NCBI GenBank assembly: GCA_031256975.1
Contig: JAIRPN010000002.1
Coordinates: 4,837-68,836, forward strand
Reading direction: 5' to 3'
Source of the DNA: Verrucomicrobiales bacterium
Lineage (GTDB): Bacteria > Verrucomicrobiota > Verrucomicrobiia > Methylacidiphilales > JAAUTS01
Length of the DNA: 64,000 bases
A program made the translations under genes and the position numbers. The notes under the pieces are model-generated. The model did no database searches and was not told the origin of the DNA. It saw only the letters and a program-made list of their open reading frames with translations. This document shows, one piece after another, positions 1 through 64,000 of this stretch. The stretch's first letter is position 1, and each line of letters opens with the position of its first letter.

Positions 1-972
1 CTGCAGCACATTCCTGTTTTCCAGCAAAACAATGCTGCCGCCCATTTTCTGCGCCAAGTCGAGTGTCTGCGACAAAATCCGGTGGGTTTCCGAATCCAAA
101 CGACTGCCGGATTCCCGCTTGGTACGCACATAAACGGCATACCACGGCGCGTTCAGATTGGCCGCCAACCGCGAAGTGGTGCGTAGCAATATCGCGGGAT
201 CGGGCCCCCGGCTGCTCAGGGCAACCATGACCTTGCCGAGTACCTTCACCTTTTCACCATTAGCGTCCCCCTGGCGTTGGCGACGGTCCAAAAATTGGGC
301 AATTTCATTCAGGGTGATCTCGCGCAATTGGGTCAGGTTTCTGGTGGTAAAAAAATTTTGCAAGGCCGAATCCACCACCTGCCGGGGATAAATCTTCCCG
401 TCCTGCAAACGCGCGATTAAATCCTCGGCCTCAAGGTCGATGTTCATGATCTGGTCGGCGGTGGCGACGATATTATCGGGAATCCGTTCCTGCACCCTGA
501 CACCGGTCGATTCCTCGACAACGCCGTACAACGATTCCAAATGCTGGATATTCAAGGTGCTGATGACATGAATCCCCGCTTCACGCAATGCCTCCACATC
601 CTCATAACGCTTGGCATGCCGCAATCCCGGGGCATTGGTATGCGCCAGTTCATCCACCAGCACAATGAACGGCTTGCGGCGCAACACCGCATCCAAATCC
701 AGCTCTTTCAGCGTAATGCCGGAATGTGTCACCGTTAGCGGCGGAACAATTTCCAGCTTGCCGATCTGGGCGATGGTTTCCGGTCGGTCATGTGGTTCGA
801 CATAACCGATCACCACATCCACACCCTGTTCGCGCAACCGGTTTCCCTCGACCAGCATGGCATAGGTCTTGCCCACGCCGGCCGAGGAACCGAGATACAA
901 TTTCAAGCGCCCCCGCCGCTGGCGGTGAATCAGTTCCAGAAAATTTTCCGGTGACGGGCGTTCCGGGTTCAT
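1..972 (-). CDS. kdpD: KdpD N-terminal sensor domain plus USP domain (partial; runs off the window start)
   Basis: Not in the ORF track. Manual translation from ATG at 972: MNPERPSPENFLELIHRQRRGRLKLYLGSSAGVGKTYAML (KdpD Walker A), later a USP-like segment (VMVALSS...WYAVYV). Directly follows kdpC. Confidence 0.9.
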   Translation of the reverse strand, partial: MNPERPSPENFLELIHRQRRGRLKLYLGSSAGVGKTYAMLVEGNRLREQGVDVVIGYVEPHDRPETIAQIGKLEIVPPLTVTHSGITLKELDLDAVLRRKPFIVLVDELAHTNAPGLRHAKRYEDVEALREAGIHVISTLNIQHLESLYGVVEESTGVRVQERIPDNIVATADQIMNIDLEAEDLIARLQDGKIYPRQVVDSALQNFFTTRNLTQLREITLNEIAQFLDRRQRQGDANGEKVKVLGKVMVALSSRGPDPAILLRTTSRLAANLNAPWYAVYVRTKRESGSRLDSETHRILSQTLDLAQKMGGSIVLLENRNVLQ

Positions 973-974
973 GG

Positions 975-1556
975 TTAGCGTCGATCCAATTCCAAGTTCA
1001 ACACTAGCACATTCACCCGCGCTTCACCAAACATTCCCAAGTCAGGGCCATCGGTGGCCTTGTCGATCAAGACCCGCAATTCCTCCATCGGGATATTGCG
1101 GGCTTTGGCCACCCGACGCGCCTGAATAGTGGCGTTTTCAGGTGAAATATGCGGATCGAGGCCGCTCCCCGAAGCGGTCACCGCGTCAGCGGGAACTTCG
1201 CTGTTAGCGTCCAGACCGTTCTCCTCACGATAGCTTTTGACGTTCGCCGCAATGTTGTCGTGTAGGCTTTGTGAGGTCGGTCCCAGATTACTGCCTGACG
1301 ACGAAGCGGCATCGTAACCCTTGCCCGCCGCCGACGGGCGCGGATGGAAATAACGATCGCCAACAAAGGCTTGTCCGATCAATTCCGATCCCACCACGCC
1401 GCCGTTGGCGTCATAAACCAGACTGCCATTGGCCTGCTTGGGAAACAATAATTGTCCCCCCGCCCAGACCAGCAACGGGTAAAGCCCGCTGCACACCAAC
1501 AGCAACCCAAGGGTCACCTTTAATGAAATTGCCAACTCTTTTAATATCTTTTTCAT
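975..1556 (-). CDS. kdpC: K+-transporting ATPase subunit C
   Basis: Motifs QANGSL, GSELIGQ, YFHPRPSA, SGSNLGP, VTASGSGLDPHIS; operon position. Confidence 0.97.
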   Translation of the reverse strand: MKKILKELAISLKVTLGLLLVCSGLYPLLVWAGGQLLFPKQANGSLVYDANGGVVGSELIGQAFVGDRYFHPRPSAAGKGYDAASSSGSNLGPTSQSLHDNIAANVKSYREENGLDANSEVPADAVTASGSGLDPHISPENATIQARRVAKARNIPMEELRVLIDKATDGPDLGMFGEARVNVLVLNLELDRR

Positions 1557-3598: not shown

Positions 3599-5350
3599 TT
3601 AGAATAGTTTTCCGGCGGTCATCAGGAAGTGCTCCACCACCGGTCCCAGCACCAGCACCGGGACAAAGGTCAGGGCTCCGATCAATACAACCGAGCCGAC
3701 AATCAAAATCGTAAAGGTTATGCCATGCACTTGCAGGGTGCCGGCACTGGAGGGCAGAATCTTCTTGGCCCCCAAATTGCCGGCCATGGCCAGAATCAGG
3801 GCGATCATGAAGAAACGACCGACCAGCATCGCTAACGACAAAGTGTAGTTATACCAAGGCGTGTTCGCCGTTAGCCCGGCGAAGGCACTGCCGTTGTTGC
3901 CAACACAGGAACTGTAAGCATACAGGATTTCACTAAAACCATGCGGCCCCTGATTGTTTAATCCGGCCAAACCCCATTTGGATACACCGGCCCATGCCGT
4001 CAACCCCAGGATGCATATCGCCAGAACCGTCAGAATCATCACGCACATCTTCACATCGAAGGATTCAATTTTCTTGCCGAGATATTCCGGAGTACGCCCC
4101 ACCATCAATCCGGCGATGAACACCGCCAGGATCACATAGATCAGCATGCCATACAGTCCCGCTCCCACCCCACCAAAGATGACCTCGCCGGTTTGCATGT
4201 TAAATAAGGGAATCAGCCCGCCAAGCGGCGTAAAGGAATCGTGCATCGCATTCACCGCACCGCAGGAAGCATCGGTGGTAACCGTGGCGAACAAGGCGGA
4301 ATTGAAAATACCGAAACGCGTTTCCTTGCCTTCCATGTTGCCATCGCTAATGGCGACACCCAGATGCTGGTGAATCGGATTGCCCGCCGATTCAGCCCGC
4401 CAACAAACCAACACCCCGGCAATGAACAGAGTGAACATCGCCGCCCACACCGTCCAGCCGTGTTTTTGATTCCTGACCATTCGTCCAAAAGTGTAAGTCA
4501 AGGCCGCTGGGATCGCGAAAATCGACAACATCTGGAAGAAATTCGACAAGGGAGTCGGGTTCTCGTAAGGATGCGCCGCATTAGCGTTCGCATAGCCACC
4601 GCCATTAGTGCCGAGCATTTTAATGGCGATCTGCGAGGCGATCGGTCCCTGCACAATACTTTGCTCCTTGAGCTCCTGCGATTTGTTATCGGTGCCCGTC
4701 ACCATTTGTGCCTGCACCAGCTGTGCGGTATCGTAGGGCTTGAAATTCTGCGGAATCCCCTGCCCGACCAAAAACAGGGCGTATACCACGCAAATGGGAA
4801 GCAACACATAGTACGTCACACGCACCAGATCGGTCCAAAAATTACCCAGTGTCTGCGACGAGGCACGGGATAAGCCGCGAATCAAAGTCGCCGCAACGGC
4901 AATGCCCGCCGCGGCGGAGGTAAAATTATGGCTGGCCAGCGCCACCATCTGCGAGAAATACGACATGGTGGATTCCCCGCCGTAACTCTGCCAGTTCGTG
5001 TTGGTCAGAAAGCTCACGGCCGTGTTGAACGCCAGGTCGGTCGTCAAGTCCGGCAGGCCCTGCGGATTCAGCGGCAAATGACTCTGCCAGCGGAGACAGG
5101 CAAACGTAAACGCCAAGCCAATCAGACTGAACGCTAACAGCGAAATACCGTATTCCCGCCTGCCTTGCTCTCGCAACGGATCAATGCCGCAGCAGCGGTA
5201 TGTCAACCGCTCCAGCGGACCGATGATCCGGTCGAGGAATGTTTTTCCATTAGGGGTGATGACCTGTTGCAAATACAAGCCCAAGGGCTTGGTAACCAGC
5301 AACAAGGTCCCGACAAACAGCATCAGCTGCAACCAATCGTGACCTCTCAT
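3599..5350 (-). CDS. kdpA: K+-transporting ATPase subunit A
   Basis: Motifs [28 protein letters not shown] and NNGSAFAG. Confidence 0.98.
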
Positions 5351-5876: not shown

Positions 5877-6326
5877 CTAGTGGGCGAATTTATTTTTGCT
5901 CGAAAGCTCAAAAGCTGCCGGAATGACCTGGAACTTTGCCGCTTGCGCATTGGCGTCCAGAAAAACTTCCACCACGTCGAAACGCACTGGCATGTCTTGC
6001 GTCTTCAATTCACTAAGATATTCATAAGCCGTGCGAATGATTTTGCGTTGTTTTGATGCCGTCACCGCCTCCGCCGGAGTGCCCCATGAATTCAGCCCGC
6101 GCGCCTTCACCTCGACGAATACCAAGACACCTTGATGACGGCAAACCAGATCAATTTCTCCCCACTTGCTTCGGTAATTCCTGACCAGTAAGCGATACCC
6201 TAGCTTGCGCAGATGACGGTTAGCGGCACGTTCGCCCAGCCTGCCGCGGCGGCGACGCTCGCCGTTAGCGTCAGAACTTGAAACTGCACTGCGTGACGGG
6301 AGCAAAGCTGCGACGATGGATTTCAC
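5877..6326 (-). CDS. yraN: YraN family (UPF0102) nuclease-like protein; start codon uncertain
   Basis: Motifs GRLGERAA, RNYR...GEIDLV, LVFVEVKAR and RFDVV; usual rnhB-yraN synteny. The ORF track extends to 6395. Confidence 0.88.
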   Translation of the reverse strand: MKSIVAALLPSRSAVSSSDANGERRRRGRLGERAANRHLRKLGYRLLVRNYRSKWGEIDLVCRHQGVLVFVEVKARGLNSWGTPAEAVTASKQRKIIRTAYEYLSELKTQDMPVRFDVVEVFLDANAQAAKFQVIPAAFELSSKNKFAH

Positions 6327-6897
6327 ACGGCCCCAAGCGTTCAAGCGCCGCGAGGTGTTTTGCCGTGCCGTATCCCTTGTGTGTGGCAAATTCATAACCG
6401 GGGAACTTATGTTCCGCCTCCTCCATCATGCGGTCGCGCGTTTCCTTGGCAAGGATGGAAGCGGCGGCAATCGACGGCGATTTGCCATCGCCCTTGACGA
6501 TGGGTTGAATCTTCACCGTTAGCGAGGGCATCTGCGAGCCATCAATCAACGCGATATCCGCCTGCCGGTCAATTCCCGCCAGTGCGCGCTGCATCGCCAA
6601 AAAAGTCGCCTGCAAAATATTCACCCGGTCGATTTCCTCCACCGTTGCCACGCCCACCGCCCATTTCAAGGCGCCGCTAACGGTGATCTCATCGAACAAA
6701 CGGCGACGCTGCGCGCGGCTCAATTTCTTGGAATCATTCAATCCTTCCGGCCAGCTTTGTCGTTCAAGAAACACACAAGCCCCGGCCACCACCGGGCCGG
6801 CCAGGCAACCACGCCCGGCCTCATCGATGCCGACAATCACCTTCGCCCCGTCATTAGCGGCCGCCTGTTCGTATTCCCAACTCAGCAAATTACTCAT
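6271..6897 (-). CDS. rnhB: Ribonuclease HII
   Basis: Motifs GIDEAGRGCLAGPVVA, LNDSKKL, SIAAASILAK, HKGYGT and HRRSF. Confidence 0.97.
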   Translation of the reverse strand: MSNLLSWEYEQAAANDGAKVIVGIDEAGRGCLAGPVVAGACVFLERQSWPEGLNDSKKLSRAQRRRLFDEITVSGALKWAVGVATVEEIDRVNILQATFLAMQRALAGIDRQADIALIDGSQMPSLTVKIQPIVKGDGKSPSIAAASILAKETRDRMMEEAEHKFPGYEFATHKGYGTAKHLAALERLGPCEIHRRSFAPVTQCSFKF

Positions 6898-7823: not shown

Positions 7824-8453
7824 TCAGGCAGCAACCAAAATTGTTTCGGGAACTTTGTGCAAAATCGAGAGCAATAACTCATCCCGGGCATCACGTTGAT
7901 AAAGCTCCTCATAAATTTGGACGATCAACCCCCGGACCAAGGCTCCCGCTAACGACGAAGTTCCGCCCACCGGCGCCAGCAACAACAGCATCTCTGTCGG
8001 CGCGCCACTCGCCAGCGGCGGCATTTTGTAAGGCACGCCAAGCAATTCACGCGCGCCAAGCTTGCGGTAAAAATTCAAGCGGCGCACCCGCTCCCCGTGA
8101 TTATCGCCAAACTCAGGATCCTCGACTTCCAGCAACAATCGTTTGCCACCGGCGAAAATTCGCTCGATGAGATGCGAACAAAACAATGATCCCGCCCCGC
8201 CGCCGCGCGCGTCCCGGCGCAACGCGATGTAATCCAGCAGGAAAAAACCGGTCTCGGTCAACTCGTGCAGCAAGGCGAACATTGCCACCCCGGCAGTGTC
8301 CTCGCCTATCCACAATTGGTAAAAACCGGCGTCCACCCGTTCCGCAATCACCATGTCACGATGCCGTTCATTATCGGGGAATGATTGCCGGTAAATGGTC
8401 AGCGCCTGCCGGAAGGACTCACCGTTAGCGTCGCTGACCCTGCGGTAGTTCAT
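7824..8453 (-). CDS. GNAT family N-acetyltransferase (paralog of 6901-7527)
   Basis: LLDYIA...ARGGGAG and RRLNFYRKLG; clearly similar to the neighbouring GNAT. Confidence 0.8.
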   Translation of the reverse strand: MNYRRVSDANGESFRQALTIYRQSFPDNERHRDMVIAERVDAGFYQLWIGEDTAGVAMFALLHELTETGFFLLDYIALRRDARGGGAGSLFCSHLIERIFAGGKRLLLEVEDPEFGDNHGERVRRLNFYRKLGARELLGVPYKMPPLASGAPTEMLLLLAPVGGTSSLAGALVRGLIVQIYEELYQRDARDELLLSILHKVPETILVAA

Positions 8454-8548: not shown

Positions 8549-9112
8549 ATGAAAGCCTTGCTGCCGTCCGGCCTTTTGTTGCTCCTCGGGCTATTAGCGC
8601 CGCTAACAGCGACACCCTACACGGAATCCCTTACCGGCATTAATTTCCCCGATGAATTATCAGGAATGCTCCTGACCAAGATTACTGATTACGAAGCGCA
8701 AAATCCCGGCGGCGGAACCGGCATCTCCTATCGTGCTCCAAATGCCAAGGCTGATTTCTATATTTATAACGGCGGCCTGAAGAATATTCCATCCAACTTG
8801 GATTCGCCGCCAATCAGCCAGCACTTCCAAGCGGTGGTCGACGCCATTCCAAAATTGCTGGGCCAACCGGAAAACCAGTTAAAAATCCTGCAACCCAGGG
8901 AAGAAATCCGGATTGGCCAACTTGCTTTCCTGCACACGGCCCTGAGTTATCAATTGAACGATGAAGGCAAAATCACCCATGTCTACCTGACCAGCCTGAA
9001 CCATCAGTTCCTCAAAATCCGCTTCACCTGCATCAACAGCTCGCTGCAGGTCAACGACCGGATTTTGCAGGACTTCCTGCAAGGCAGCGCCAAATTGTGG
9101 CCCTCTCCCTGA
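8549..9112 (+). CDS. Hypothetical secreted protein
   Basis: Hydrophobic N-terminal signal peptide; fills the gap between flanking genes. Confidence 0.7.
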   Translation: MKALLPSGLLLLLGLLAPLTATPYTESLTGINFPDELSGMLLTKITDYEAQNPGGGTGISYRAPNAKADFYIYNGGLKNIPSNLDSPPISQHFQAVVDAIPKLLGQPENQLKILQPREEIRIGQLAFLHTALSYQLNDEGKITHVYLTSLNHQFLKIRFTCINSSLQVNDRILQDFLQGSAKLWPSP

Positions 9113-9113: not shown

Positions 9114-9959
9114 TCACTTCAACAGCCGTTGCATCTCCTCGGCATATTTCCGGCCAAGGATAATCTGCCCCGCGCCGTCGAAATGCAGGGCATCTTTCAT
9201 GGTTAGCCCCTTGGTATCGACCATGCCGGTCAGCGGCACATCCCTGGCCACATTGGCCTGCGCGGTTCTCAAGGTTTCGAGCTGCTTCAATGCCGTCTGC
9301 GAAACCTGACCGATCACAAAAGGCAAATCCTTTCCGTAGGTCAGGCGGATATCGACAATGAACCGCTTCAGATTTTCCTCGTATTGGTTGGCGGAATTTT
9401 CCTTGTCGGCATCCGCTTCCCCCTGCATCCAGATCATGCCTTTGATGACAATCGTGTCGCCGGGGTGAGCCTCTTTCAACGTGGTCAAACCCCTGCCGAC
9501 GATGGTTTGAAAACCCTTGTACATGCCGCCGTCACCCTCGGTGCCTGCCGTACCGCCTGCTTTCCAATGGTCAATCAGGTTGGTGCCACCGTAGGAATAC
9601 TTGAGGATGGCCACCGACTCATTCTTCTGTTGGTAATAATCCGCCATTGCCTTGCCGAAACTGAGTTCCGGCCCGAAATGAATGGTATTCTCCGCCTCGA
9701 TGGTCGGTTGCAACGGAATCAAGGTTCCCGATGTGCTGGTCGTGTTGGACAAGTCGAGTTTTCGGTTGTAATAAAACGGCACGTTTTCCTGCTTTTTCAA
9801 TTCCTCCGGCACCACCGTGTCCGGTTTGAAATCGCGGCCGTCGGCATTGGATTGTCCGCCGACCAAAAACACATTGATCGTTCCGGCGGAGAGAGCCAAA
9901 ACCTGTAACTTCACCATTAGCGCCAGTGCGGCGACCTGTCCTAATTTTCGTGCCTGCAT
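9114..9959 (-). CDS. Sialate O-acetylesterase-like carbohydrate esterase (SASA/DUF303, SGNH fold)
   Basis: Motifs GGQSNA, FGPE, WMQGEAD and DALHF; signal peptide. Confidence 0.85.
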   Translation of the reverse strand: MQARKLGQVAALALMVKLQVLALSAGTINVFLVGGQSNADGRDFKPDTVVPEELKKQENVPFYYNRKLDLSNTTSTSGTLIPLQPTIEAENTIHFGPELSFGKAMADYYQQKNESVAILKYSYGGTNLIDHWKAGGTAGTEGDGGMYKGFQTIVGRGLTTLKEAHPGDTIVIKGMIWMQGEADADKENSANQYEENLKRFIVDIRLTYGKDLPFVIGQVSQTALKQLETLRTAQANVARDVPLTGMVDTKGLTMKDALHFDGAGQIILGRKYAEEMQRLLK

Positions 9960-9960: not shown

Positions 9961-13230
<3,270 letters not shown>

Positions 13231-45337: not shown

Positions 45338-45412
45338 TTTTTCGTTAAAACGTAACAATTTACCTGTCTTTTGCGCTTTAATTTTTACTCATTTGGCTGT
45401 TAAATCTCCGCC

Positions 45413-46477: not shown

Positions 46478-46479
46478 TT

Positions 46480-47127: not shown

Positions 47128-47173
47128 CCCTCACCGTTAGCGTCTTCCGCCTTTTCGTCTATATTGCCTTCCT

Positions 47174-51458: not shown

Positions 51459-52276
51459 TTAGCGACCTGTCTAAGCTTTGCGTCCACACCATCACCACCA
51501 AACCCTGGGCGATTGAGGATGCCGTGGTCAACTATTCCAAGGCCGGTGTAAAAGGCATCACCATTTGGCGCAACGCCATTGAGGGACGCGATTTGACCAA
51601 GGTCAAATCCCATATCGCCAATCACGGATTGGAAGTGGTTTCGCTTTGCCGTGGCGGATTCTTCCCTGCTCTCGATACCAAAGGCCGTCAAACTGCCATT
51701 GACGACAATAAGCGCGCTATCGATGAAGCTGCTGCCGTCGGCGCCCCGCACGTGGTATTGGTTTGTGGCGCGGTTCCGCAACAATCCTTGTTCGAATCCC
51801 GCAAGCAAATTGCCGACGGCATCGCCGCCGTGCTGCCGCACGCCAAACAGGCCGGAGTCAAGCTAGCTATCGAGCCCCTGCACCCGATGTACGCGAATGA
51901 CCGTTCCGCGGTCAACACGCTGAAACAAGCCAATGACCTGTGCGACCAACTGGCTTCACCGCTGGTGGGCGTGGCGGTGGATGTCTATCACTTGTGGTGG
52001 GACGACAGCTTGGAACAGGAAATCAAGCGTTGCGGCAAATCCGGCTACCTGTTCGCCTTCCACATCTGCGACTGGAAAACCCCGACCACCGATTTCCTCA
52101 ATGACCGCGGGCTGATGGGCGAAGGCTGCATCAATATCCCGCAGATCCGTTCCTGGGTGGAGTCCGCCGGCTTCAAGGGTTTCAATGAAGTTGAAATTTT
52201 CTCCAATCTTCACTGGGCCAAATGTCAGGACTCGTTCCTCCAGGAAATCACCCAGGCTTATTTGCAACATTCCTAA
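51455..52276 (+). CDS. Sugar phosphate isomerase/epimerase (xylose isomerase-like TIM barrel)
   Basis: Motifs LAIEPLHP, DVYH, HICDW, RGLMGEG and EVEIF; ATGA overlap with the upstream gene. Confidence 0.9.
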   Translation: MISDLSKLCVHTITTKPWAIEDAVVNYSKAGVKGITIWRNAIEGRDLTKVKSHIANHGLEVVSLCRGGFFPALDTKGRQTAIDDNKRAIDEAAAVGAPHVVLVCGAVPQQSLFESRKQIADGIAAVLPHAKQAGVKLAIEPLHPMYANDRSAVNTLKQANDLCDQLASPLVGVAVDVYHLWWDDSLEQEIKRCGKSGYLFAFHICDWKTPTTDFLNDRGLMGEGCINIPQIRSWVESAGFKGFNEVEIFSNLHWAKCQDSFLQEITQAYLQHS

Positions 52277-52294
52277 CCTCAACTGAAAAAAATT

Positions 52295-53443: not shown

Positions 53444-53481
53444 TTCAGTTTGTTTTCAGGTAAACTCTTTTTACAGCCGAT

Positions 53482-53516
53482 AAAAAAACTGCCGGTTCTT
53501 CTCCGGCAGTTTTTTT
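53482..53516 (+). terminator. Rho-independent terminator
   Basis: A7-CTGCCGG-loop-CCGGCAG-T7. Confidence 0.88.
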
Positions 53517-53727
53517 GCATCCTATTATCGGCCGTTAATTGTATTTACTCCTACCGTGTGAATAAAAATCTAACCTCTTATTGATGCCGAAGTTAGCTAC
53601 TATTCATTTAATTCCACATCCGAAAGATTTTGGTTATTAATCCCGTTTCCAGTCCATGTCTACAAGATTATACTTGGCTCCAATTAACTGATTAGGCAAA
53701 TTTTTCCGTAAAAAACCGGCCGTTTCC

Positions 53728-53755
53728 TAGACAAATCCCAAACAGGTGTTAGATT
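53728..53755 (+). promoter_or_regulatory. Candidate promoter of the AP2 gene
   Basis: TAGACA-16 nt-TAGATT with an extended-10 TG; a TATAAT also lies at 53762. Confidence 0.35.
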
Positions 53756-53801
53756 GTTTCCTATAATAAGGGAGTAACTTAAACAAACATTATAAATAAT
53801 T

Positions 53802-54251
53802 ATGGCTAAATCCAAAACTCGTAAAAGACGGACTCCGGGCGTGAGCCGGATCGATCAACCCGAAAAACATAACCACGGTTTTTATGTGCGCCTGACCCGC
53901 AATGGCAAACGTTTCGCCAAGTTCTTTTCCGACCGCGCCCATGGCGGCAAGGAAAAAGCCCTGACAGCGGCATCCAAATATTATGCCGAGCTGGACAAGA
54001 AGTATCCCCGCATGGCCCGCAAGGCGTTTGCGCAAATCGCGCGTCGCGCCAACAAAACCGGCATCCTCGGCGTGAGCAAGATCACCAAGGACGTCAAAGG
54101 CAAGGTCTACAAGTTCTGGCAGGCGACCTGGAGCCCGGTGCCGGGCGAAGTCGCCAAGAAGGCTTTCTCCATCAAGAAGTATGGTGATGAAAAGGCCAAG
54201 GTCCTCGCCATCAAGGCCCGCAAAAAGGGCGTCAGCGAAATGGCGGATTAA
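53802..54251 (+). CDS. Small basic protein with two AP2-like DNA-binding domains
   Basis: GVSRID...GFYVRL..NGK...KFFSD..HGG.EKAL and NKTGILGVS...WQATW...KAFSIKKYGDEKAKVLAIKAR; very K/R-rich. Confidence 0.8.
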   Translation: MAKSKTRKRRTPGVSRIDQPEKHNHGFYVRLTRNGKRFAKFFSDRAHGGKEKALTAASKYYAELDKKYPRMARKAFAQIARRANKTGILGVSKITKDVKGKVYKFWQATWSPVPGEVAKKAFSIKKYGDEKAKVLAIKARKKGVSEMAD

Positions 54252-54267
54252 TTTCCCAAAAAACATC

Positions 54268-54300
54268 AAACCCCGCATCCGCATGGTGCGGGGTTTTTTA
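54268..54300 (+). terminator. Rho-independent terminator
   Basis: AAACCCCGCATC-loop-GGTGCGGGGTTT followed by TTT. Confidence 0.88.
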
Positions 54301-54314
54301 TTTCACGGTTAGCG

Positions 54315-55074: not shown

Positions 55075-57909
55075 ATGGCCACCAAACATCCTTTTGAAAG
55101 TGCGAAGCTCAGCTTCCAGTCCAACGGTAAAGATTATTCCTATTTCTCCATTCCGGCGTTAGGCAAACAGCTTGGCGTTAGCGTCGAACGTCTGCCGGTC
55201 AGCATCCGCATCGTGCTGGAATCCGTGTTGCGCAATTGCGACGGCATCCGCGTCAGCGAACAGGCGGTCAAGGAACTCGCCAACTGGGCCCCAACCACCA
55301 CCCGTAGCGAGGAAATCCCCTTCGTGGTGGCCCGTATCGTGTTGCAAGATTTCACCGGCGTGCCGCTGCTGGTCGACCTCGCCGCCATGCGCAGCGCGGT
55401 GCACAAGCTCGGCAAGAACCCGAAAATCATCGAACCGTTGGTGCCGGTGGACCTGGTGGTCGACCACTCGGTCCAAGTCGACGTTAGCGGCAGCGCCGAT
55501 TCCTTCGCCAAGAACCTCGAGATTGAATTCCAGCGCAACCGCGAACGCTACCAGTTCCTGAAATGGGGCATGCAGGCCTTTGATACTTTCAAAGTGGTGC
55601 CTCCCGGCATCGGCATCGTGCACCAGGTCAACCTGGAATATCTCGCCAAGGGCCTTTTGAAGGACGCTAACAGCGACATCTATTATCCTGACACGCTGGT
55701 CGGCACCGACTCGCATACCACCATGATCAACGGCATCGGCATCGTCGGCTGGGGCGTCGGCGGCATCGAGGCGGAAGCGGGCATGCTCGGACAGCCCGTG
55801 TATTTCCTGACGCCCGACGTGGTCGGCGTGTATCTCACCGGCGCGTTGCGTGAAGGCGTAACCGCCACCGACCTGGCGCTCACCATCACCCAGATGCTGC
55901 GCAAAGCCAAGGTGGTCGGCAAGTTCGTTGAATTCTACGGCCCCGGCGCCACCGCATTGCCGGTCGTCGACCGCGCCACCATCGCCAATATGGCCCCCGA
56001 ATATGGCGCCACCATGGGCTTCTTCCCGATCGACGGCGAATGCACCAATTACCTGCGTGCCACCGGTCGTGACGAGGCGGACATCGCCCGTTACGAAGCT
56101 TATTATAAGGCACAGAACCTCTGGGGCATTCCGGCCAAGGGCGACATCGATTACTCGGTCAACCTCGAACTCGACCTCGCCACCGTGGTGCCGAGCGTCG
56201 CCGGACCAAAGCGTCCGCAAGATCGCATCGAACTGCCCAAGTTGAAAAATGAATTCGTCGGTTCCCTCACCAAACCGGTCACGGAAAACGGCTTCGGCAA
56301 ACAGGCCGCCGATCTCGGCAGGACTGTCGCCGTCAACGGCAACGGCGCCGCCCATCCCGGTGGCGGCAGCCAGAATCCCGAAACCTCGGTCCAGGGCATC
56401 AACCCGAAGACCGATCTTGAAATGGCCAACAACCGTCCAACCCCGGACCCGGTGACCACCGTTAGCGCCTCGGTCAACGGCCAGATCGGCCATGGCAGCG
56501 TGCTGATCGCCGCGATCACCAGTTGCACCAATACCTCGAACCCCAGCGTGATGCTGGCGGCGGGCTTGCTGGCAAAGAAGGCCGTGGAAAAAGGCCTGCG
56601 CCCGAATCCGCTGGTAAAAGCCTCGCTGGCCCCCGGCTCGCGCGTCGTGAGCGACTACCTTGCCAAGGCCGGTTTGCAAACCTATCTCGACCAGTTGAAT
56701 TTCAACCTGGTCGGTTACGGGTGCACCACCTGTATCGGCAACTCCGGACCGTTAGCGGCGCCGATCGAAGACGCCGTGGTAAAGAATGACATCGTGGCTG
56801 CCAGTGTACTGTCAGGCAACCGCAACTTCGAAGCCCGCGTGCACCAGAACATCAAGGCCAACTTCCTGATGTCACCGCCACTGGTAGTCGCCTTCGCCCT
56901 CGCCGGGCGCGTGGATATTGATTTGAGCCAGGATGCCATCGGCACCGGCTCGGACGGCAAGCCGGTTTATCTGAAGGACATCTGGCCCACGCTCGGCGAA
57001 ATCCGCGAGCAAATGCAGACCGCCCTCAAACCGGAAGTATTCCGCAAGTTGTACACCGACTTCGCCTCGCAGAATCCGAAATGGAACGAAGTCCCCTCCT
57101 CGACCGGCAATGTCTATGAATGGGATCGCAACTCGACCTACATTCAGGAACCGCCGTTCTTCGAAGGCTTCACCATGCAAGCCGGCACCATTGGCGAGAT
57201 CAAGAACGCCCGCCCGCTCGGTATCTTCGGCGATTCGGTAACCACCGACCACATCTCCCCGGCGGGTTCGATCAAGAAGACCGCCCCGGCTGGCAAATAC
57301 TTGCTGGACAATGGTGTCACCTATGAGGACTTCAACAGCTACGGTTCACGCCGTGGCAACGACCGCATCATGACCCGCGGCACCTTCGCCAACGTGCGCA
57401 TCAAGAACCTGATGCTCGGCGGCGAAGAAGGCGGCAACACCCTGTTGCAACCGGAAGGCACCAGGCTGTCGATCTACGACGCGGCGGTCGAGTACAAGAA
57501 ACGCAATACCCCGCTGGTGGTCATCGCCGGACAGGAATACGGCACCGGCAGTTCGCGTGACTGGGCCGCCAAAGGCACCAACCTGCTCGGCGTGAAAGCG
57601 GTCATTAGCGAAAGCTTCGAACGCATCCATCGCAGCAACCTGGTCGGCATGGGCGTGCTGCCCTGCTGCTTCGAGGAAGGCACCAACGCCAAGAGTCTCA
57701 AGCTCGACGGCAGCGAAACCTTCTCGATCCTCGGCATCACCGAGAACGTGAAGCCCCGCCAAAAGCTGACCTTGGAAATCAAGCGCGCCAATGGCGAAGT
57801 TCAAAACGTGCCGGTCATTCTGCGCATCGACACCCCGATCGAGGTGGAATACTACCGTCATGGCGGCATTCTGCCTTATGTGTTGCGTCAGTTGATCGCC
57901 AAGGCTTAA
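55075..57909 (+). CDS. acnA: Aconitate hydratase A
   Basis: Motifs [28 protein letters not shown] and TTDHISPAG. Confidence 0.98.
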
Positions 57910-58710: not shown

Positions 58711-59667
58711 TCAGGCGTTGCCGATCAGGATGCCGGCGAGAAATACCAGCAGCCCGCCGACAATGACCTGGAATGCGGCAGACAGGAACGGGGTGTCCAT
58801 GAAGCGCTTGCGAATCCAGGCGATCACCACCAGTTCAACCAGCACGATACCCACTGCCAAACCCGTCGCCACCCGGAAATCACTGATCATGTAAGGCAAC
58901 GTGTGGCCGAGGCCGCCCACCGCGGTCATCAATCCGCAGACGATGCCGCGGATCAACGGTTTGCCGCGGCCGGTCAATTCACCATCGTCGGAAACCGCCT
59001 CGGTGAAACCCATGCTGATGCCCGCGCCGACCGAGGCCGCCAGGCCAACCAGAAACGCGTCGTGCGAATTGTGCGTGGCGAATGCCGCGGCAAAAATCGG
59101 CGCCAGCGTCGAGACCGAACCGTCCATCAATCCCGCCAATCCCGGCTGCACCACTTGCAACACAAACAGACGGTGGCGCGTCTTCTCCTCCTCGGCCTTG
59201 GCGCCGGATTGCTCCAACGCACGGTCGAGTTGCTCGGCCAGTTCGCTGTGCTCCTGCTCTTCCTTTGCCAGTTCATTCAACAACTGGCGGATCGAGGCGT
59301 CCTTGCAATTGGCGGCGGCCTTCTCGTAATAATGCGTCGTCTCCAGTTCCATGATTTCCATCTCGCGACGGACCTGGTTCACGGTTAGCGCCTTGGACAA
59401 CCACAGCGGCTTGCGTTTGACGAAGCCCTTCACGTCCTCGCGGCGGATCAACGGGATATACTCGCCGAACTTGCTCTTGTACAACTCCAGCAAACGGTGC
59501 AGATGCCCCGCCTCCTCCTCGCGCATGCGCAGGATCGCGTCGGCGGTGGCCGGGTAATTCTCCCGCAGACGCTCGGCAAACTCGGCGTAAATCCGGCCGT
59601 CGGTCTCTTCCAATGAAATCGCCAAGGCCAAGACCTCGCGGGCGGTTAGATCCTTGAATGATTTCAT
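58711..59667 (-). CDS. mbfA: Rubrerythrin/ferritin-like plus VIT1 iron exporter
   Basis: LALAISLEE, ExxH motifs and QPGLAGLMDGSVSTLAP. Confidence 0.92.
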   Translation of the reverse strand: MKSFKDLTAREVLALAISLEETDGRIYAEFAERLRENYPATADAILRMREEEAGHLHRLLELYKSKFGEYIPLIRREDVKGFVKRKPLWLSKALTVNQVRREMEIMELETTHYYEKAAANCKDASIRQLLNELAKEEQEHSELAEQLDRALEQSGAKAEEEKTRHRLFVLQVVQPGLAGLMDGSVSTLAPIFAAAFATHNSHDAFLVGLAASVGAGISMGFTEAVSDDGELTGRGKPLIRGIVCGLMTAVGGLGHTLPYMISDFRVATGLAVGIVLVELVVIAWIRKRFMDTPFLSAAFQVIVGGLLVFLAGILIGNA

Positions 59668-59685
59668 AGTTGGCGTTCTCCCAAG

Positions 59686-60810
59686 TTACACGTTGAAGCG
59701 AAACTCCATCACGTCGCCATCCTGCACGGTGTACTCCTTGCCTTCCACCCGCAGCTTGCCCGCCTCGCGACACTTGGCCTCGCTGCCAAGCGACGCCAGA
59801 TCCTGGTAGGCCATGCATTCGGCGGCAATGAAGCCGCGCTCGAAATCCGAGTGGATCACCCCTGCCGCAGCCGGGGCCTTGTCACCCGCGTGGATGGTCC
59901 AGGCGCGGGTTTCCTTTTCACCCGTGGTAAAGTAGGTACGCAGGCCGAGCAGGTGGTAAACCGCGCGGATCAACTTGCCCACGCCGGATTCCTCGACACC
60001 CAGGTCCTGCAAGAATTCCTGCTGGTCGGCGGGCTCCAGGTCGATCAATTCCGATTCAATCTGCGCGCTGATCACCACCGCCTCCGCGCCGAAATGGCTG
60101 GCGCAGTAATCCTCCACCTGTTTCACTCGTTCGCCGACGGGACCGCCGCGCTCGCCCTTGGCCAGCGCCGCCAAATCGCCTTCCTTCACATTGCAGGCGA
60201 AGATGGTCGGCTTGTTCGATAGCATGAAGAAACCCTTGGCGATCTCCTTTTCATCGTCGCTCAATTCGCAGGTCAGCGCCGGTTTGCCCGCGTTCAAGTG
60301 CGGCTCGAGCTTCTCGATCACCGCGATTTCCGCCTTGGCCTTCTTGTCGCCGGAACGGGCGGTCTTTGACAAACGATCCTTCTGCTTGGTAATCGACCCC
60401 AAATCAGCCAGCACCAACTCGGTCAAAATCACCTCAATGTCGCGCAACGGATCAACCGAGCCGCTGACATGGTGGATATCCGCGTCCTCGAAACAGCGCA
60501 CCACCTGCACGATGGCGTCCACCTCGCGAATATGGGACAAAAACTGGTTGCCCAAGCCCTCGCCCTGGCTGGCCCCTTTCACCAATCCGGCGATATCCAC
60601 GATCTCGATCGAGGCCGGGATGATTTTCTGGGTCTTGGAAATCCCCGCCAACACCTCCAGCCGCTTGTCCGGCACCACCACGATGCCCACGTTCGGATCA
60701 ATGGTACAAAACGGATAATTCGCCGCCTGCGCCTTGCGCGTCTTGGTCACGGCGTTAAACAAGGTGCTCTTGCCGACATTCGGCAACCCGACAATTCCAG
60801 CTCTTAACAT
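59686..60810 (-). CDS. ychF: Redox-regulated ATPase YchF
   Basis: Motifs GIVGLPNVGKSTLFNA, ANYPFCTIDPN and DIAGLV. Confidence 0.97.
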   Translation of the reverse strand: MLRAGIVGLPNVGKSTLFNAVTKTRKAQAANYPFCTIDPNVGIVVVPDKRLEVLAGISKTQKIIPASIEIVDIAGLVKGASQGEGLGNQFLSHIREVDAIVQVVRCFEDADIHHVSGSVDPLRDIEVILTELVLADLGSITKQKDRLSKTARSGDKKAKAEIAVIEKLEPHLNAGKPALTCELSDDEKEIAKGFFMLSNKPTIFACNVKEGDLAALAKGERGGPVGERVKQVEDYCASHFGAEAVVISAQIESELIDLEPADQQEFLQDLGVEESGVGKLIRAVYHLLGLRTYFTTGEKETRAWTIHAGDKAPAAAGVIHSDFERGFIAAECMAYQDLASLGSEAKCREAGKLRVEGKEYTVQDGDVMEFRFNV

Positions 60811-61003
60811 GATTGGAAATATGAAAGGGATTTTCCCCCACGGGGACAAGAAGAAACATAAAACCCCCATTAGAGGAAATTCCCCATAACCGGGTCCGGG
60901 AAACACGGCAGACAGGCGGCAATGACCGTTTTACAAGAGTACACCCCCGCCCGGCCTGTTTACTCGGATCGTTCGTGGCTGCGCAATAACCGCAACCTGC
61001 CTT

Positions 61004-61201
61004 TCACTTTTCCCGCAGAGTCAGGATATCCACCTCGTCATCGTTGAACTTCCGCAGGGCATAGCTGATGCAGCGGCGGATGATGAACGATTTGCCAAGG
61101 CCGGTCTTGGTCTGGAACTCCTCGAGCAGTTCGGTTTGTTCGGTTTCCATCCGTACCGGGATGGGATTATTGGAATTTTCTACGTGTGCTTTTGTTTTCA
61201 T
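61004..61201 (-). CDS. Small ribbon-helix-helix (CopG-like) protein
   Basis: PIPVRM...ELLEEFQTKTGLGKSFIIRRCISYAL fits a beta-helix-helix pattern. Confidence 0.6.
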   Translation of the reverse strand: MKTKAHVENSNNPIPVRMETEQTELLEEFQTKTGLGKSFIIRRCISYALRKFNDDEVDILTLREK

Positions 61202-61213
61202 GGAAAAAGAAGG

Positions 61214-61340
61214 TTCACCGCAGAGGCGCGGAGGACGCCGAGTTAAGATACCTTTTAGTTGGATGCAGCCCTTGCGTAAGCTGTGTTTAAACCAAAATAA
61301 ACGGCCTCTTTCTCTGCGTTCTCCGCGTCTCTGCGGTGAA
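61214..61340. repeat. 29-bp inverted-repeat (REP/MITE-like) element built from 9-bp CGCRGAG units
   Basis: TTCACCGCAGAGGCGCGGAGGACGCCGAG ... CTCTGCGTTCTCCGCGTCTCTGCGGTGAA, 26/29 complementary, with an AT-rich spacer. Confidence 0.85.
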
Positions 61341-61349
61341 TGTGTTGCT

Positions 61350-64000
61350 TCAAAACTGGTGTCTGTAGCCAAAGTTTAATCCCCAGGGTTTGTCGTACTT
61401 GTCGCCAAAGCTGGCCTCGTAATCCAGATGTAGCTGGTTGCTGTCATCCAGTTGCCACGCCACACCCGCGCCGATGACTCCCCTTGCGCCGTCGACATTG
61501 GGCCGCCATTCGCCGCCTTCGGCACGAACTTGTCCGCCACTGCTGATTTGTTCCAGACCACCCACTTTGACGTAGGGTTGCAACCAACCCTTGTCGTTCA
61601 GCTTGATGTTTCTTCCCAATCTTGCACCGCCGTAGAATTGGATAACGTCGGTGTCACTCAGATCCACCTGCATGCCTTGGATGGTCGTGTAATTGTCGTT
61701 GGTCAGATGCACGTAACCGACTTGCAGGCTCGGCTCGGCAAACCAGCCGTCTTTGAACTGGAATTGCCGGCCGAGTTCGAGGCTCAGACCAACTCCGACA
61801 CTGTCGTAGGCTCCATGGTCTGTTCCGTCGAAACTGCTGTTGAAGTATTGGCCCTTCGCCACCGTGTCGGCGTACCAGCCATCCTTATGAATCCAGGTGC
61901 CATAGAGTCCGCCGTAACCGCTGTCGGTATTGCCGTTGTAACCGGTATGGAAATCCCGGTCGGCTCCGCCGTATCCGGCGAAGACTCCGGTGTAGAGGGT
62001 GTTGTTGTCATCCAGTAACCACGCCTTGTCGGTGCCGAGATCGACGCCGTATTGGGTTTCACGGAACCCTTTCACACCGTTGATGCCGGTATGGATATTG
62101 GCCTGTTGTCCGTAGCTTCTGACCCAGATATTTTCCACCAACCCTTCGACAAGCTCAGGGTGAGTGGAGGAGGAATGCGGCGTGTTGTAGCGCAGTTCGC
62201 CCAGGCGCTTGTTCAAGTTATCCAGTTGCGTGAACCAGAAGCCGCTCAGGGCGGCGGCGCTGTTCAGCACGGCGTCACCTTCCGGGCTGATGACGGGCGG
62301 CACGGGGCCGCCGCTGCCGGTCAGGGCCAGATACCAGTCATTCGCGCTGAGTCCCAGGGAGTCGCCGTTCAGGACGGTATAATTGTAGCGGTACATGCCG
62401 CTATCCACACCTACGCTACCGCTGAAGGCGGCGAGGCCGTCGCTGGTCTGCACCAACAGCAAGGGAGCCTCACTGCCGGTCGGGGCACCACCGCTGTTGG
62501 TGATGAGCAGATTGTGGCTGCCGCTGCTGGTTCCCTGCACTTCAATGGTGTCGGCGGTTCCGGCGGCGATGTCGGTGTCGATGCGGAAAACACCGTTGCC
62601 GTCAAGATTGCCGCTGATGGTGAGTTGGTGGCCGAGCAGATGAAAGTCCACCAGGCCGTTGTTGGTCAATGAAGTAATGGTCTGGTCAAAGCCGCCGAGG
62701 TTGAAGACCGCGCCGTTGTCCACGCTGACGCTGCTGTTCTGGATGGCGTCGGCGGCGGCAAGGCGCAAGGTTCCCGCCTGAATCGCGGTGCTGCCGCTGT
62801 AGGTATTGGTGGCGCTGAGCACCAGTGTGCCGTCGCCGAGCTTGGTCAGGCTGTTGCCGTCCCATGCGGAGTTGAAGGTCTCAGCGCTGCGGTCAACCAG
62901 CGGCACATCAACGGTGAACGTATCGGCCACGGTGAAGTTGCCGTGGGCGGTGGCGGTGCCGGTGTACCAGGTGAGATAAAGCCCGGCCTCGTAGTTCCTG
63001 CCGTCCGCGCTCTTGGCGACGCTGAGGGTGGCGTAATCCGCCGTGCTGGTGTCACCGCCGATGATGATATTGGCAAAGTCCCCACTGATGCCGCTGGTGG
63101 TTTGCAGGATGAGGATGCGATTATCGTCCAGCTCGCTGGCGGTCGGCGGCACGGTGCCGCTGACGCCGGTGATGTTCAGGGTGCCGCCGAGAATGGCGGT
63201 ACCGGAACTGACGTAGGCATCCGTGCGCCCTGCCGTGAGCATCACGTCGAGGGTACTGGAGGCGTTTTGCGAATAGGCGCCACCGACGTTGACCCGGCCC
63301 CAGTCGCGAACGATTAGGGCGCCGCTGCCACTGTTGCCGACATACAGATTGCCCGTGTTGTTCCAGTAACCGCTGCCGCTAACGGTCACGCTACCCTGGC
63401 TGCCAGCTTCCTTGCCGATGTAAATGTAACTGTTGGTGCTGCTGACCGAACCTTGGTCGGCAATATGCAGGTTGCCGCTGCCCGAGTGACCGACGTTCAG
63501 GTTGGCCGTGTTCCAGCAGCCACTGCCGCCGACCGTGACGCTGCCGTAACTGTTGGCACCATAGCCAATGTAGCCGGATTTGCTACTGACCGAGCCGCTA
63601 TCGGTGATGAGCAGGCTGCCACTGCCTCCATAGCCGACGATCAGGTCGAACCCGTTATTCCAGTAACCGCTGCCGCTGACGGTCACACTGCCCCGGCTGC
63701 CGCTGTCAAAGCCGACGAGACTGTTAGCACTGCCGACCAAACCGCTGTCCATGATCATCAGGCTGCCACCGCCCTGATTGCCAACATACAGGTTGCCAGA
63801 GTTATGCCAGTAACCGCTGCCGCTAACGGTCACGCTGCCCTGGCTGTTGGTGCCGTAACCGATGTAGCCGTAATTGCTGCCGACCGAGCCGCTATCCATG
63901 ATCGTCAGGCTGCCACCACCCTGGTTGCCAACATACAGGTTGGTAGTGTTATTCCAATAGCCGCTGCCGCTAATGGTCGCGCTGCCCCGGCTGTTGGTGC
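61350..64000 (-). CDS. Autotransporter (type Va) with repeat-rich passenger (partial; start lies beyond the window)
   Basis: About 50-aa G/S-rich repeats; SLTKLGDGTLVLSATNTYSG repeat; pertactin-like region; beta-barrel ending YRHQF. The frame stays open to 64000. Confidence 0.93.
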   Translation of the reverse strand, partial: TNSRGSATISGSGYWNNTTNLYVGNQGGGSLTIMDSGSVGSNYGYIGYGTNSQGSVTVSGSGYWHNSGNLYVGNQGGGSLMIMDSGLVGSANSLVGFDSGSRGSVTVSGSGYWNNGFDLIVGYGGSGSLLITDSGSVSSKSGYIGYGANSYGSVTVGGSGCWNTANLNVGHSGSGNLHIADQGSVSSTNSYIYIGKEAGSQGSVTVSGSGYWNNTGNLYVGNSGSGALIVRDWGRVNVGGAYSQNASSTLDVMLTAGRTDAYVSSGTAILGGTLNITGVSGTVPPTASELDDNRILILQTTSGISGDFANIIIGGDTSTADYATLSVAKSADGRNYEAGLYLTWYTGTATAHGNFTVADTFTVDVPLVDRSAETFNSAWDGNSLTKLGDGTLVLSATNTYSGSTAIQAGTLRLAAADAIQNSSVSVDNGAVFNLGGFDQTITSLTNNGLVDFHLLGHQLTISGNLDGNGVFRIDTDIAAGTADTIEVQGTSSGSHNLLITNSGGAPTGSEAPLLLVQTSDGLAAFSGSVGVDSGMYRYNYTVLNGDSLGLSANDWYLALTGSGGPVPPVISPEGDAVLNSAAALSGFWFTQLDNLNKRLGELRYNTPHSSSTHPELVEGLVENIWVRSYGQQANIHTGINGVKGFRETQYGVDLGTDKAWLLDDNNTLYTGVFAGYGGADRDFHTGYNGNTDSGYGGLYGTWIHKDGWYADTVAKGQYFNSSFDGTDHGAYDSVGVGLSLELGRQFQFKDGWFAEPSLQVGYVHLTNDNYTTIQGMQVDLSDTDVIQFYGGARLGRNIKLNDKGWLQPYVKVGGLEQISSGGQVRAEGGEWRPNVDGARGVIGAGVAWQLDDSNQLHLDYEASFGDKYDKPWGLNFGYRHQF
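62142..62163. repeat. REP-like palindrome inside the autotransporter CDS
   Basis: CCCTTCGACAAGCTCAGGGTGA, which reads HPELVEG in frame on the minus strand. Confidence 0.5.

Follow-up and report, generated by a model that had tools for sequence, protein, structure and literature searches.

A highly iterated, asymmetric DNA word with two dialects in a genus of Verrucomicrobiota: a candidate DNA uptake sequence

A short, asymmetric DNA word, RTTAGCG (CGCTAAY on the opposite strand), recurs along a stretch of 64,000 nucleotides from the genome of a Verrucomicrobiales bacterium (assembly GCA_031256975.1, contig JAIRPN010000002.1), which we refer to as the window. This word is the core of a longer motif that is present throughout the genome, on both strands and in every reading frame in which it does not create a stop codon, and that is shared with the other four species of the genus, in which one base of the core is different. 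We argue that the motif is probably an uptake sequence, comparable to the DNA uptake sequence (DUS) of the Neisseriaceae and the uptake signal sequence (USS) of the Pasteurellaceae, and that it has been spread by biased uptake and recombination. The genome from which the window was taken (G000, below the own genome; the window is G000:C6:4837-68836) comprises 2,757,365 bp on 19 contigs, with a GC content of about 55%, a completeness of 86.9% and a contamination of 0.05%. G001 to G004 denote the other four species of the genus, the congeners, and G005 to G007 denote outgroups in the gene comparisons.

The motif is over-represented throughout the genome

In the window there are 102 exact matches to RTTAGCG/CGCTAAY. 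One hundred dinucleotide-preserving shuffles of the window gave a mean of 11.23 copies (s.d. 3.30, maximum 20) and none of the 100 reached 102. The initial annotation, made from the letters of the sequence, had put the number at about 100, with a near-even split between strands and only about seven TTAGCG hexamers preceded by a pyrimidine. The counts bear this out, with 53 copies on the forward strand and 49 on the reverse, and with exactly seven pyrimidine-preceded hexamers (3 forward, 4 reverse). An extension of the motif to CYRTTAGCG had also been described, and it is real in the form CYR or CSR: the dinucleotide preceding RTTAGCG is CC at 35 of the 102 sites, CT at 16, CG at 13 and TG at 10. 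Inspection of the flank logo shows that the full motif is asymmetric and about 14 nucleotides long, 5'-TCRYSRTTAGCGNC-3', and so longer than first stated. The logo has T at position -6 (0.70), C at -5 (0.64), G or A at -4 (0.63 and 0.30), C or T at -3, C or G at -2 and G or A at -1, followed by TTAGCG, any base and C at +7 (0.61); the information fades beyond -6 and +7.

Across the 2.76 Mb of the own genome RTTAGCG occurs 4243 times (GTTAGCG 2555, ATTAGCG 1688), and the pyrimidine-preceded forms CTTAGCG (139) and TTTAGCG (441) have counts close to or under those expected. No other hexamer of this genome is as strongly over-represented as TTAGCG, with 4823 copies compared with 974, 723 and 1216 expected from Markov models of orders 1, 2 and 3, respectively. 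The degenerate 12-mer TCRYSRTTAGCG is present in 718 + 776 = 1494 copies, as against 5 + 0 for the reversed pattern, and the single 12-mer TCGCCATTAGCG in 260 copies where fewer than one is expected (Markov orders 1-3). The enrichment is not confined to the window, since all 19 contigs carry the motif, at densities of 1.03 to 2.14 per kb.

Genes were called by a simple method that combines open reading frames (ORFs) with a codon score, which yielded 1938 genes covering 81% of the genome. Within coding sequences (CDS) RTTAGCG was counted 3336 times, whereas shuffling synonymous codons with the protein held fixed gave 564±23 copies and shuffling whole codons gave 354±16 (20 shuffles each). For the 12-mer the corresponding values are 1145, 52±7 and 7±2. 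The survival of the excess in these comparisons indicates that even protein sequences have been bent toward the motif. In all, 3338 of the 4243 RTTAGCG copies were placed in CDS (1.49 per kb) and 905 outside genes or at their edges (1.76 per kb), a class that is inflated by the crude gene calls. Of the copies in CDS, 1652 are on the strand of the gene and 1686 are antisense. The four frames that are free of stop codons are all used (404, 1245, 1001 and 681 copies), and the two frames in which a stop codon would be created contain 3 and 4 copies. The use of several frames, and the placing of rare leucine codons by the motif, had been pointed out in the window, and both hold. There, 52 sites read in the sense direction of a gene and 34 in the antisense direction, and the other 16 are non-coding or lie at gene edges; 21 sites set a CTA codon and 12 a TTA codon in frame, among them CCG-CTA-ACG and GCG-CTA-ACG in the P-type ATPase gene at 1567-3579 (reverse strand) and CCG-TTA-GCG in the aconitase gene. 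Genome-wide, 1002 of the 2459 CTA codons (41%) stand in the context CG-CTA-AY, and TTA is followed by GCG in 13.3% of cases, compared with a GCG codon frequency of 3.2%. The motif even supplies stop codons, 77 of the 942 TAA (as CGC-TAA-Y) and 22 of the 245 TAG (as RT-TAG-CG). It is a signal at the level of DNA, not a protein or a transcription signal.

Two types of iterated element were rejected on these data. A repeat of the REP or MITE type does not fit, because most copies lie inside CDS and because the flank information ends at -6 and +7. Cyanobacterial HIP1 resembles the motif in being a highly iterated short word, found about once per kb inside and outside genes. HIP1 is a palindrome, whereas the logo of the verrucomicrobial motif is asymmetric.

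The orientation of the copies was compared with GC skew in 10-kb bins. Where the skew is positive, 1057 copies point forward and 1049 in reverse, and where it is negative the numbers are 1013 and 1021, so that there is no replichore bias. This bears on whether the motif might be a Chi-like hotspot for RecBCD or AddAB, or a polar signal of the KOPS or AIMS type. Chi and KOPS/AIMS resemble the motif in being short words that are specific to a lineage, over-represented and more frequent in native DNA, and over-representation, species specificity and depletion in foreign DNA are all properties of Chi. However, Chi and KOPS/AIMS are polar with respect to replication and the verrucomicrobial motif is not; it is also longer, about 14 nucleotides rather than 5-8, and inverted pairs of it are frequent. 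The lack of orientation bias rules out the behavior of Chi, KOPS and AIMS as far as a draft assembly allows, and we regard an explanation of this kind as extremely improbable.

The genus uses one motif in two dialects

Words were ranked de novo in 37-67 kb of sequence from each congener (222 kb in all). Samples from 28 genomes that do not belong to the genus were ranked as well; 4 of these genomes represent the family and 24 the order, and five of the samples were shorter than 21 kb. In G001 to G004 the top word is GTCAGCG/CGCTGAC (z 22-31), and the congener flank logo, T C A C C G TCAGCG N C, matches that of the own genome. When whole genomes were searched, the congener 12-mer TCRYSRTCAGCG was found in 2147 copies in G001, 1658 in G002, 2387 in G003 and 1788 in G004, compared with 110 in the own genome and 9-24 in four genomes of the sister genera. 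The own-type 12-mer is present in 16-37 copies in each of the four congeners and at background level in 36 further genomes of the family and order. The congener counterpart of the own 12-mer TCGCCATTAGCG is TCACCGTCAGCG. From the matching logos and the counts of the two forms it follows that the genus shares a single motif architecture in two dialects, which differ at core position 2 (C in the congeners, T in the own genome) and in the preference at position -4 (A and G, respectively). No comparable word was found in the 28 sampled genomes outside the genus, in which the top 7-mer reached a z-score of at most 11.4, compared with 14-31 in the own genome and the congeners, and in which the highest scores belonged to GC-rich simple words.

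Many sites of the two dialects occupy the same positions

The two dialects were compared at orthologous positions in 106 gene pairs, retained from 202 BLAST rows at an identity of at least 55% and a coverage of at least 60%. These pairs represent 103 distinct own genes and 103 kb, with 74% nucleotide identity and a mean amino-acid identity of 76%. They contain 217 own TTAGCG sites, and at 105 of these the congener has TCAGCG at the identical position. The next commonest hexamer facing an own site, with all frames pooled, is CTGGCG (11 of 217). Seen from the side of the congeners, there are 477 TCAGCG sites, at which the own genome has TTAGCG in 105 cases and TCAGCG in 44; the remainder have decayed or were never present in the own genome. 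Where the switch is synonymous (xTC-AGC to xTT-AGC or CTG-A to CTA-A), it has taken place at 94 of 334 sites; where it changes an amino acid, at 12 of 130 (Ser to Leu at 2 of 31, Asp to Asn at 10 of 99); and where a TAG codon would arise, at none of 23. Of the own sites in the TTA-GCG frame, 29 of 31 do not derive from TCAGCG, and some come from CTG-GCG by two transitions, into the rarest leucine codon.

Individual alignments illustrate these relationships. In an alignment of window positions 5953-6887 with three congeners (alignment A1), the own genome has CGCTAAC where all three show CGCTGAC. This site is the 12-mer at 6675..6686 (reverse strand; CGCTAACGGTGA on the forward strand), where CGCTGAC occupies the same columns, approximately 786-795, in 3/3 aligned congeners. 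At 6513..6524 (forward; columns approximately 624-636) the own genome has TCACCGTTAGCG, G002 has TCACCGTCAGCC and both G001 and G003 have TCACCGGCAGCG. At a third 12-mer, TCGCCGTTAGCG at 6259..6270 (forward), the aligned sequence of G002 is without the motif. The aconitase gene (55075..57909, forward) contains six copies, at 55177, 55483, 55665 (reverse), 56461, 56751 and 57604. At two of the six, at least two congeners have TCAGCG in the same column, and two others are a single mismatch away from the congener dialect (TCAGGG and TCAGTG). Of the remaining two, one lies in an insertion that only the own genome has and the other was gained by the own genome alone (CCG-CTG-CCC in the congeners, CCG-TTA-GCG in the own genome). 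The PNPase gene (36803..38944, forward) contains two copies, at 37217 and 38192, and at both the same columns have TCAGCG in G003 and/or G004, with the outgroups G005-G007 lacking the motif there. For the two genes together, the congener dialect stands in the same column at four of eight own sites, two sites are one mismatch removed and two are own-only. At none of these eight sites is a motif present in G005 or G006, and the single one in G007 is coincidental. Most of the congener sites in the two genes are absent from both the own genome and the outgroups, and must be gains made after the split. In both gene trees the own genome is sister to the other four, and parsimony therefore cannot polarize the switch. 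Comparison of the 44 shared TCAGCG sites with only 2 shared TTAGCG sites suggests that TCAGCG may be the older form.

A priori, a difference of this kind might be a by-product of mutation or repair bias tied to methylation, with Vsr acting beside a C5-methyltransferase and the C-to-T difference between dialects coming from deaminated methylated cytosine. The dialect difference is indeed a C/T transition, and the own genome has a C5-methylase ORF with an adjacent Vsr gene at G000:C18:100.6-102.0 kb. Vsr was found in 3/5 genomes of the genus and in 0/4 of the sister genera. However, it was not found in G003 (92% complete) or in G002, both of which carry the motif at full strength, and the three Vsr genes lie in three unrelated neighborhoods, with only the own copy adjoining a methylase, whose Pfam match is split over two frames. 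An information content of about 14 nucleotides is far above that of typical methylase or Vsr sites, and the 12-mer is in more than 100-fold excess. Further, very-short-patch (VSP) repair favors the C form, whereas it is the T form that is enriched in the own genome; own-dialect sites were also formed by two changes in sequence that had not been a motif (CTG-GCG to TTA-GCG); and the T variant is not clearly depleted in the congeners, with 52 copies observed against a summed order-2 expectation of about 70. A Vsr/methylase pair was rejected as the driver on account of its patchy and non-syntenic occurrence, and we consider a methylation-tied bias very unlikely. The initial annotation had offered a methyltransferase-linked site as one of its readings; the C5-methylase/Vsr pair of the own genome is in its favor, and it is weakened by the presence of Vsr in only three of the five motif-bearing genomes, in three neighborhoods.

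The motif might alternatively, as the initial annotation also suggested, be the binding site of an abundant, genus-specific nucleoid-associated or chromosome-organizing protein, maintained by weak selection at each site. A site of 12-14 bp that is asymmetric, distributed over the whole genome and absent from recent insertions would be compatible with such a protein, and a change in its specificity could also yield dialects. Against this, each of the 1500-4800 sites would be under only minute selection, yet the motif overrides codon preference and amino-acid sequence: 41% of CTA codons are borne by the motif, and the switch was non-synonymous at 12 of 130 sites. Thousands of sites, moreover, have been converted to the new dialect, and the density in promoter-rich non-coding DNA is no higher than in genes. 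Known site-specific nucleoid systems use tens of sites. We therefore judge a nucleoid-protein site to be unlikely.

Inverted pairs resemble terminators

The arrangement of neighboring copies is not random with respect to orientation. Tail-to-tail neighbors show a sharp peak in spacing at 20-21 nucleotides (52 pairs), and within 30 nucleotides there are 105 tail-to-tail pairs compared with 46, 28 and 37 in the other orientations; 76 of the 105 are non-coding. With a stricter pattern 97 pairs were obtained, of which 68 are outside CDS, 61 are no more than 60 nucleotides from the 3' end of a gene and 49 have a flanking run of T or A. A typical terminator-like pair reads CGCTAATGGCGA-NN-TCGYCATTAGCG and is followed by T's. 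In the window, the pair CGCTAAC-N7-GTTAGCG at 47122..47142, listed as terminator-like on the reverse strand, forms a predicted RNA hairpin of -14 kcal/mol (z -3.24). The TAA of its left arm is the stop codon of a DeoC-family aldolase ORF (46480-47127), and its right arm is a full 12-mer (47131-47142). The presence of uptake sequences within terminators is a known trait of the Neisseriaceae and Pasteurellaceae, according to the available parts of the reports concerned.

The motif is depleted in acquired DNA

The copies are over-dispersed along the genome, with a variance-to-mean ratio of 4.2 for the number per 10 kb. Gaps of 6 kb or more number 38 and together span 390 kb, where 0.4 such gaps would be expected. 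Proteins were annotated from seven of the longest gaps. The longest motif-free stretch of all, G000:C4:211-244 kb (33 kb), has a lambda-type phage portal gene among ORFs without a Pfam match and is likely to be a prophage. At G000:C2:33-58 kb, 25 kb without any copy contain a nif cluster, with a NifA-like sigma-54 activator, two Oxidored_nitro proteins and a NifB-like radical SAM protein; this is probably an acquired island. A TraG-like P-loop protein is encoded in the gap at G000:C2:12-30 kb, an IS66 transposase together with autotransporters in that at G000:C11:0-17 kb, and an autotransporter with an ABC-2 transporter gene in that at G000:C12:92-107 kb. In a gap in C18 only TPR repeats and nothing mobile were found, and the single protein tried from the tail of C4 beyond the prophage had no Pfam match. 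The motif is under-represented in recently acquired or mobile DNA, five of the seven annotated long gaps holding a prophage, a TraG element, a nif island, IS66 or autotransporter genes. Genes in the top quintile of codon scores are also poorer in the motif, with 1.07 copies per kb compared with 1.46-1.71 in the other quintiles. As stated in the available part of one study (PMC7371117), depletion of the DUS in mobile elements has been used to find integrative and conjugative elements.

The first 20 kb of G000:C2, which have a GC content of 0.62 and are followed by the TraG-like gene, contain 10 12-mers of the congener dialect and none of the own dialect. A repeat-rich region of 6.6 kb within it (C2:12.5-19 kb) is only 75-77% identical to G001 and G003. 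This divergence rules out a recent import from the sampled congeners, and implies either that the donor is unsampled or that the contig is chimeric.

The window itself holds five motif-free stretches of 2.9-6.8 kb. The first (18943..24066, 5.1 kb) encodes an FAD-binding protein, a PA14-domain protein and hemA, and the second (27957..31045, 3.1 kb) contains hemD/cobA-type and hemC genes. The third (40336..47121, 6.8 kb, GC 0.52) carries genes for an aldehyde dehydrogenase, an FAD-linked oxidase with Fe-S domains and the DeoC-family aldolase; a tRNA-Phe gene is located at its left edge (40407-40480, forward), and the stretch may be an island integrated at tRNA-Phe. The fourth (51465..54307, 2.9 kb) encodes a GFO/IDH/MocA oxidoreductase. 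The fifth (59391..63376, 4.0 kb) contains a YchF GTPase gene, a PATR/pertactin autotransporter gene and 7 copies of RTCAGCG.

Interpretation of the motif as a probable uptake sequence

A long asymmetric word that lacks polarity, occurs in all frames in spite of its cost to codons and proteins, forms terminator pairs, is depleted in mobile DNA, is restricted to a genus and has switched dialect within it by one base, with old sites converted and new sites gained in both lineages, is most readily read as a verrucomicrobial uptake sequence. To our knowledge, no established mechanism other than biased uptake combined with recombination can shift thousands of weakly selected sites together. The way in which the motif might have reached its present distribution we infer as follows. 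The signal would be bound on double-stranded DNA by a surface component of the competence apparatus, for which a minor type IV pilin or pseudopilin is the likeliest candidate, so that motif-bearing and hence conspecific fragments would be taken up preferentially. The imported DNA would pass through the secretin and ComEC, be loaded by DprA and recombine. Biased uptake and homologous recombination would together act as a molecular drive, which would spread motif-creating mutations wherever the sequence tolerates them. Such a drive would account for the presence of the motif on both strands and in all stop-free frames, in thousands of copies, for rare leucine codons forced into genes, for pairs co-opted as terminator hairpins and for the absence of the motif from recently acquired DNA. 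The ancestor of the genus would already have possessed the signal, and one lineage would have changed its specificity at one core base (TCAGCG versus TTAGCG) and at position -4, after which existing sites would have been converted to the new dialect and further sites would have arisen in it. The own species may be partly isolated from its congeners by this difference in dialect.

Some of the machinery that this scheme calls for is encoded in the own genome, which has ComEC (760 amino acids, with DUF4131 and Competence domains), DprA, a secretin and five T2SSE-family ATPases. Pilin-like ORFs with the N_methyl domain number 25 over the cut-off and 31 at E≤0.1.

Several observations weigh against an uptake sequence. 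The best match in the own genome to ComP_DUS (PF16732) has E=0.05 and 15.9 bits, below the cut-off, and the profile also matches in E. coli; the ORF in question was rejected as a receptor candidate, being an ordinary GspG-like pilin. The negative result means that no ComP homologue is present, and a receptor of another kind may exist. A ComEA-type HHH_3 protein was not found in any of the five genomes of the genus, all of which are metagenome bins that are 77-92% complete; the only matches were Tex-like proteins of approximately 770-800 amino acids. All 4 motif-less genomes of the sister genera likewise encode ComEC and secretins, which occur in 9/9 genomes of the family, and the machinery consequently does not separate motif-bearing from motif-less groups. 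The strongest type of secretin, seen in the other 8 genomes, was not seen in the own genome, which may reflect its completeness of 87%. Pairs of the terminator type account for about 200 of 4823 hexamers (approximately 4%), compared with about half of DUS and USS copies, as a 2025 preprint gives in its available part. The motif-free stretches of the window hold ordinary genes (hemA, hemC, hemD and YchF) rather than obvious mobile DNA. The window YchF gene diverges from its congener counterparts as usual, with 80% nucleotide identity, which rules out a recent import from the sampled congeners; it is possible that such motif-free stretches in the congener dialect come from an unsampled donor or from a chimeric assembly. 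Short or atypical genes are missed by gene calls of the kind used here, and some of the nominally non-coding sites may therefore be coding. Finally, literature searches returned no data on uptake or transformation for this lineage or for the phylum. The DUS-like reading of the initial annotation is partly supported, by the strand and replichore symmetry, the use of stop-free frames, the densities in coding and non-coding DNA, the terminator pairs, the depletion in mobile DNA and the dialects, and not by the searches for a receptor and for ComEA.

The motif could also be the signal of a different system of biased transfer or gene conversion, unrelated to type IV pilus competence, such as a packaging signal like that of a gene transfer agent (GTA) or the target of an unknown conversion enzyme. 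Any bias in transfer, if followed by recombination, would be expected to leave the signatures found here, namely symmetry, copies in all frames, scarcity in foreign DNA, dialects and gains that continue; neither a ComEA nor a ComP homologue was found, and the competence genes present are not confined to the motif-bearing genus. On the other hand, no candidate machinery for such a system was found, and the single prophage examined is without the motif. We know of no sequence-specific transfer or conversion system of this kind, and consider the explanation improbable. We give equally little credence to its more specific form, in which an undescribed, genus-specific machine that involves neither the type IV pilus nor ComEA would drive its own word, and a one-base change in its specificity would have split the species off.

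Comparison with the established systems lends support to an uptake sequence. Like the DUS of the Neisseriaceae, the motif is a non-palindromic word of 10-12 nucleotides at thousands of copies per genome (the 12-mer counts here are 1494-2387), uses both strands, forms inverted pairs that serve as terminators and has dialects that differ by single bases. For the DUS, the available part of Frye 2013 reports dialects separated by single-base differences, a C/T transition among them, with 2245-4549 copies per genome. The motif differs from the DUS in its unrelated sequence (the DUS consensus is given as GCCGTCTGAA in the text available to us), in its occurrence in Verrucomicrobiota, in the lack of any ComP_DUS-family receptor or ComEA among the proteins found, in its far fewer terminator copies and in being known from sequence alone. 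With the USS of the Pasteurellaceae it shares a strong core and weaker flanks. Most USS copies are inside genes, in several frames, and shape the proteome, as the accessible part of PMC2817400 describes; here too most copies lie inside genes in several frames and shape codons and proteins. The sequence is again unrelated (USS core, from a source available in part, AAGTGCGGT), the phased AT-rich flanks of the USS are not seen in the own logo and the lineage is uncultured. The USS receptor was itself long unknown, a minor pilin being only predicted according to the available part of PMC12616744.

The initial annotation knew of no such motif in this lineage, and our searches agree: the motif strings were not found in the main text of published papers, and searches on DNA uptake sequences and Verrucomicrobia returned only incidental mentions and nothing relevant on competence in the phylum. 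In the available parts of a 2026 survey of terminators in thousands of genomes and of a 2025 preprint, uptake sequences are described only for the Neisseriaceae and Pasteurellaceae.

Uptake sequences are the only known case in which bacteria recognize the DNA of their own kind by a genome-wide word. If our interpretation is correct, the phenomenon can arise independently outside the Proteobacteria, and these Verrucomicrobiota are probably naturally transformable, a useful property in a phylum that does not lend itself easily to manipulation. A natural dialect switch would then have been caught with both states and the converted sites visible, and molecular drive versus selection, as well as uptake specificity as a barrier between species, would become testable by comparative genomics. 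The two dialects are also sharp markers for binning, for spotting foreign DNA and for the design of transforming DNA.

Motif copies and other features of the window

The 102 copies of RTTAGCG/CGCTAAY in the window extend over both strands from 259 to 63974, and 28 of them match the full 12-mer TCRYSRTTAGCG. In addition to those already described, the forward strand carries TCACCATTAGCG at 254..265, 9911..9922 and 35776..35787; TCACCGTTAGCG at 729..740, antisense within a gene in which it reads CCG-CTA-ACG, and at 8419..8430; TCATGGTTAGCG at a gene boundary (969..980); TCGCCATTAGCG at 15514..15525, inside a GH95 gene, and at 25993..26004; TCATCGTTAGCG at 24062..24073; and TCACGGTTAGCG at 54303..54314 and 59379..59390. 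The 12-mers on the reverse strand, given here as they read on the forward strand, are CGCTAATGGCGA at 4345..4356 and 13738..13749; CGCTAACGACGA at 7947..7958; CGCTAACCGTGA at 10107..10118, inside a GH2 beta-galactosidase gene, and at 16091..16102 and 50353..50364; CGCTAATGGTGA at 10779..10790, also inside the GH2 gene, and at 18082..18093 and 47481..47492; CGCTAACCACGA at 16166..16177; and CGCTAACGGCGA at 24716..24727, 25379..25390 and 34340..34351. A head-to-head pair, ATTAGCG-C-CGCTAAC, occupies both strands at 8593..8607. The sole 12-mer of the congener dialect in the window is on the reverse strand at 62612..62623 (CGCTGATGGTGA on the forward strand), inside the autotransporter gene at 61350-63899.

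The genes of the window include a kdp-type P-type ATPase, GH2 and GH95 glycosidases, PNPase, aconitase and PATR autotransporters. Over window positions 1-18400 there is little synteny with the congeners: three of them match only 5.9-6.9 kb, and a match to the GH genes was obtained in G004 alone. The kdp-type P-type ATPase genes have a c-di-AMP riboswitch upstream of them (RF00379, 66.4 bits; 5634-5805, reverse strand). The PATR/pertactin autotransporter at 61350-63899 (reverse strand) has paralogs on G000:C10, C11, C12, C13 and C4 and belongs to a large family in the own genome and the congeners, the genes of which are often located at contig ends and are motif-poor. For the window PNPase, the best named matches are in Verrucomicrobiota bins (76%) and in Chthoniobacter flavus (74%). 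Its match in G004 (G004:C163:6360-8480) has one in-frame TGA, which may be due to a sequencing error or to recoding.

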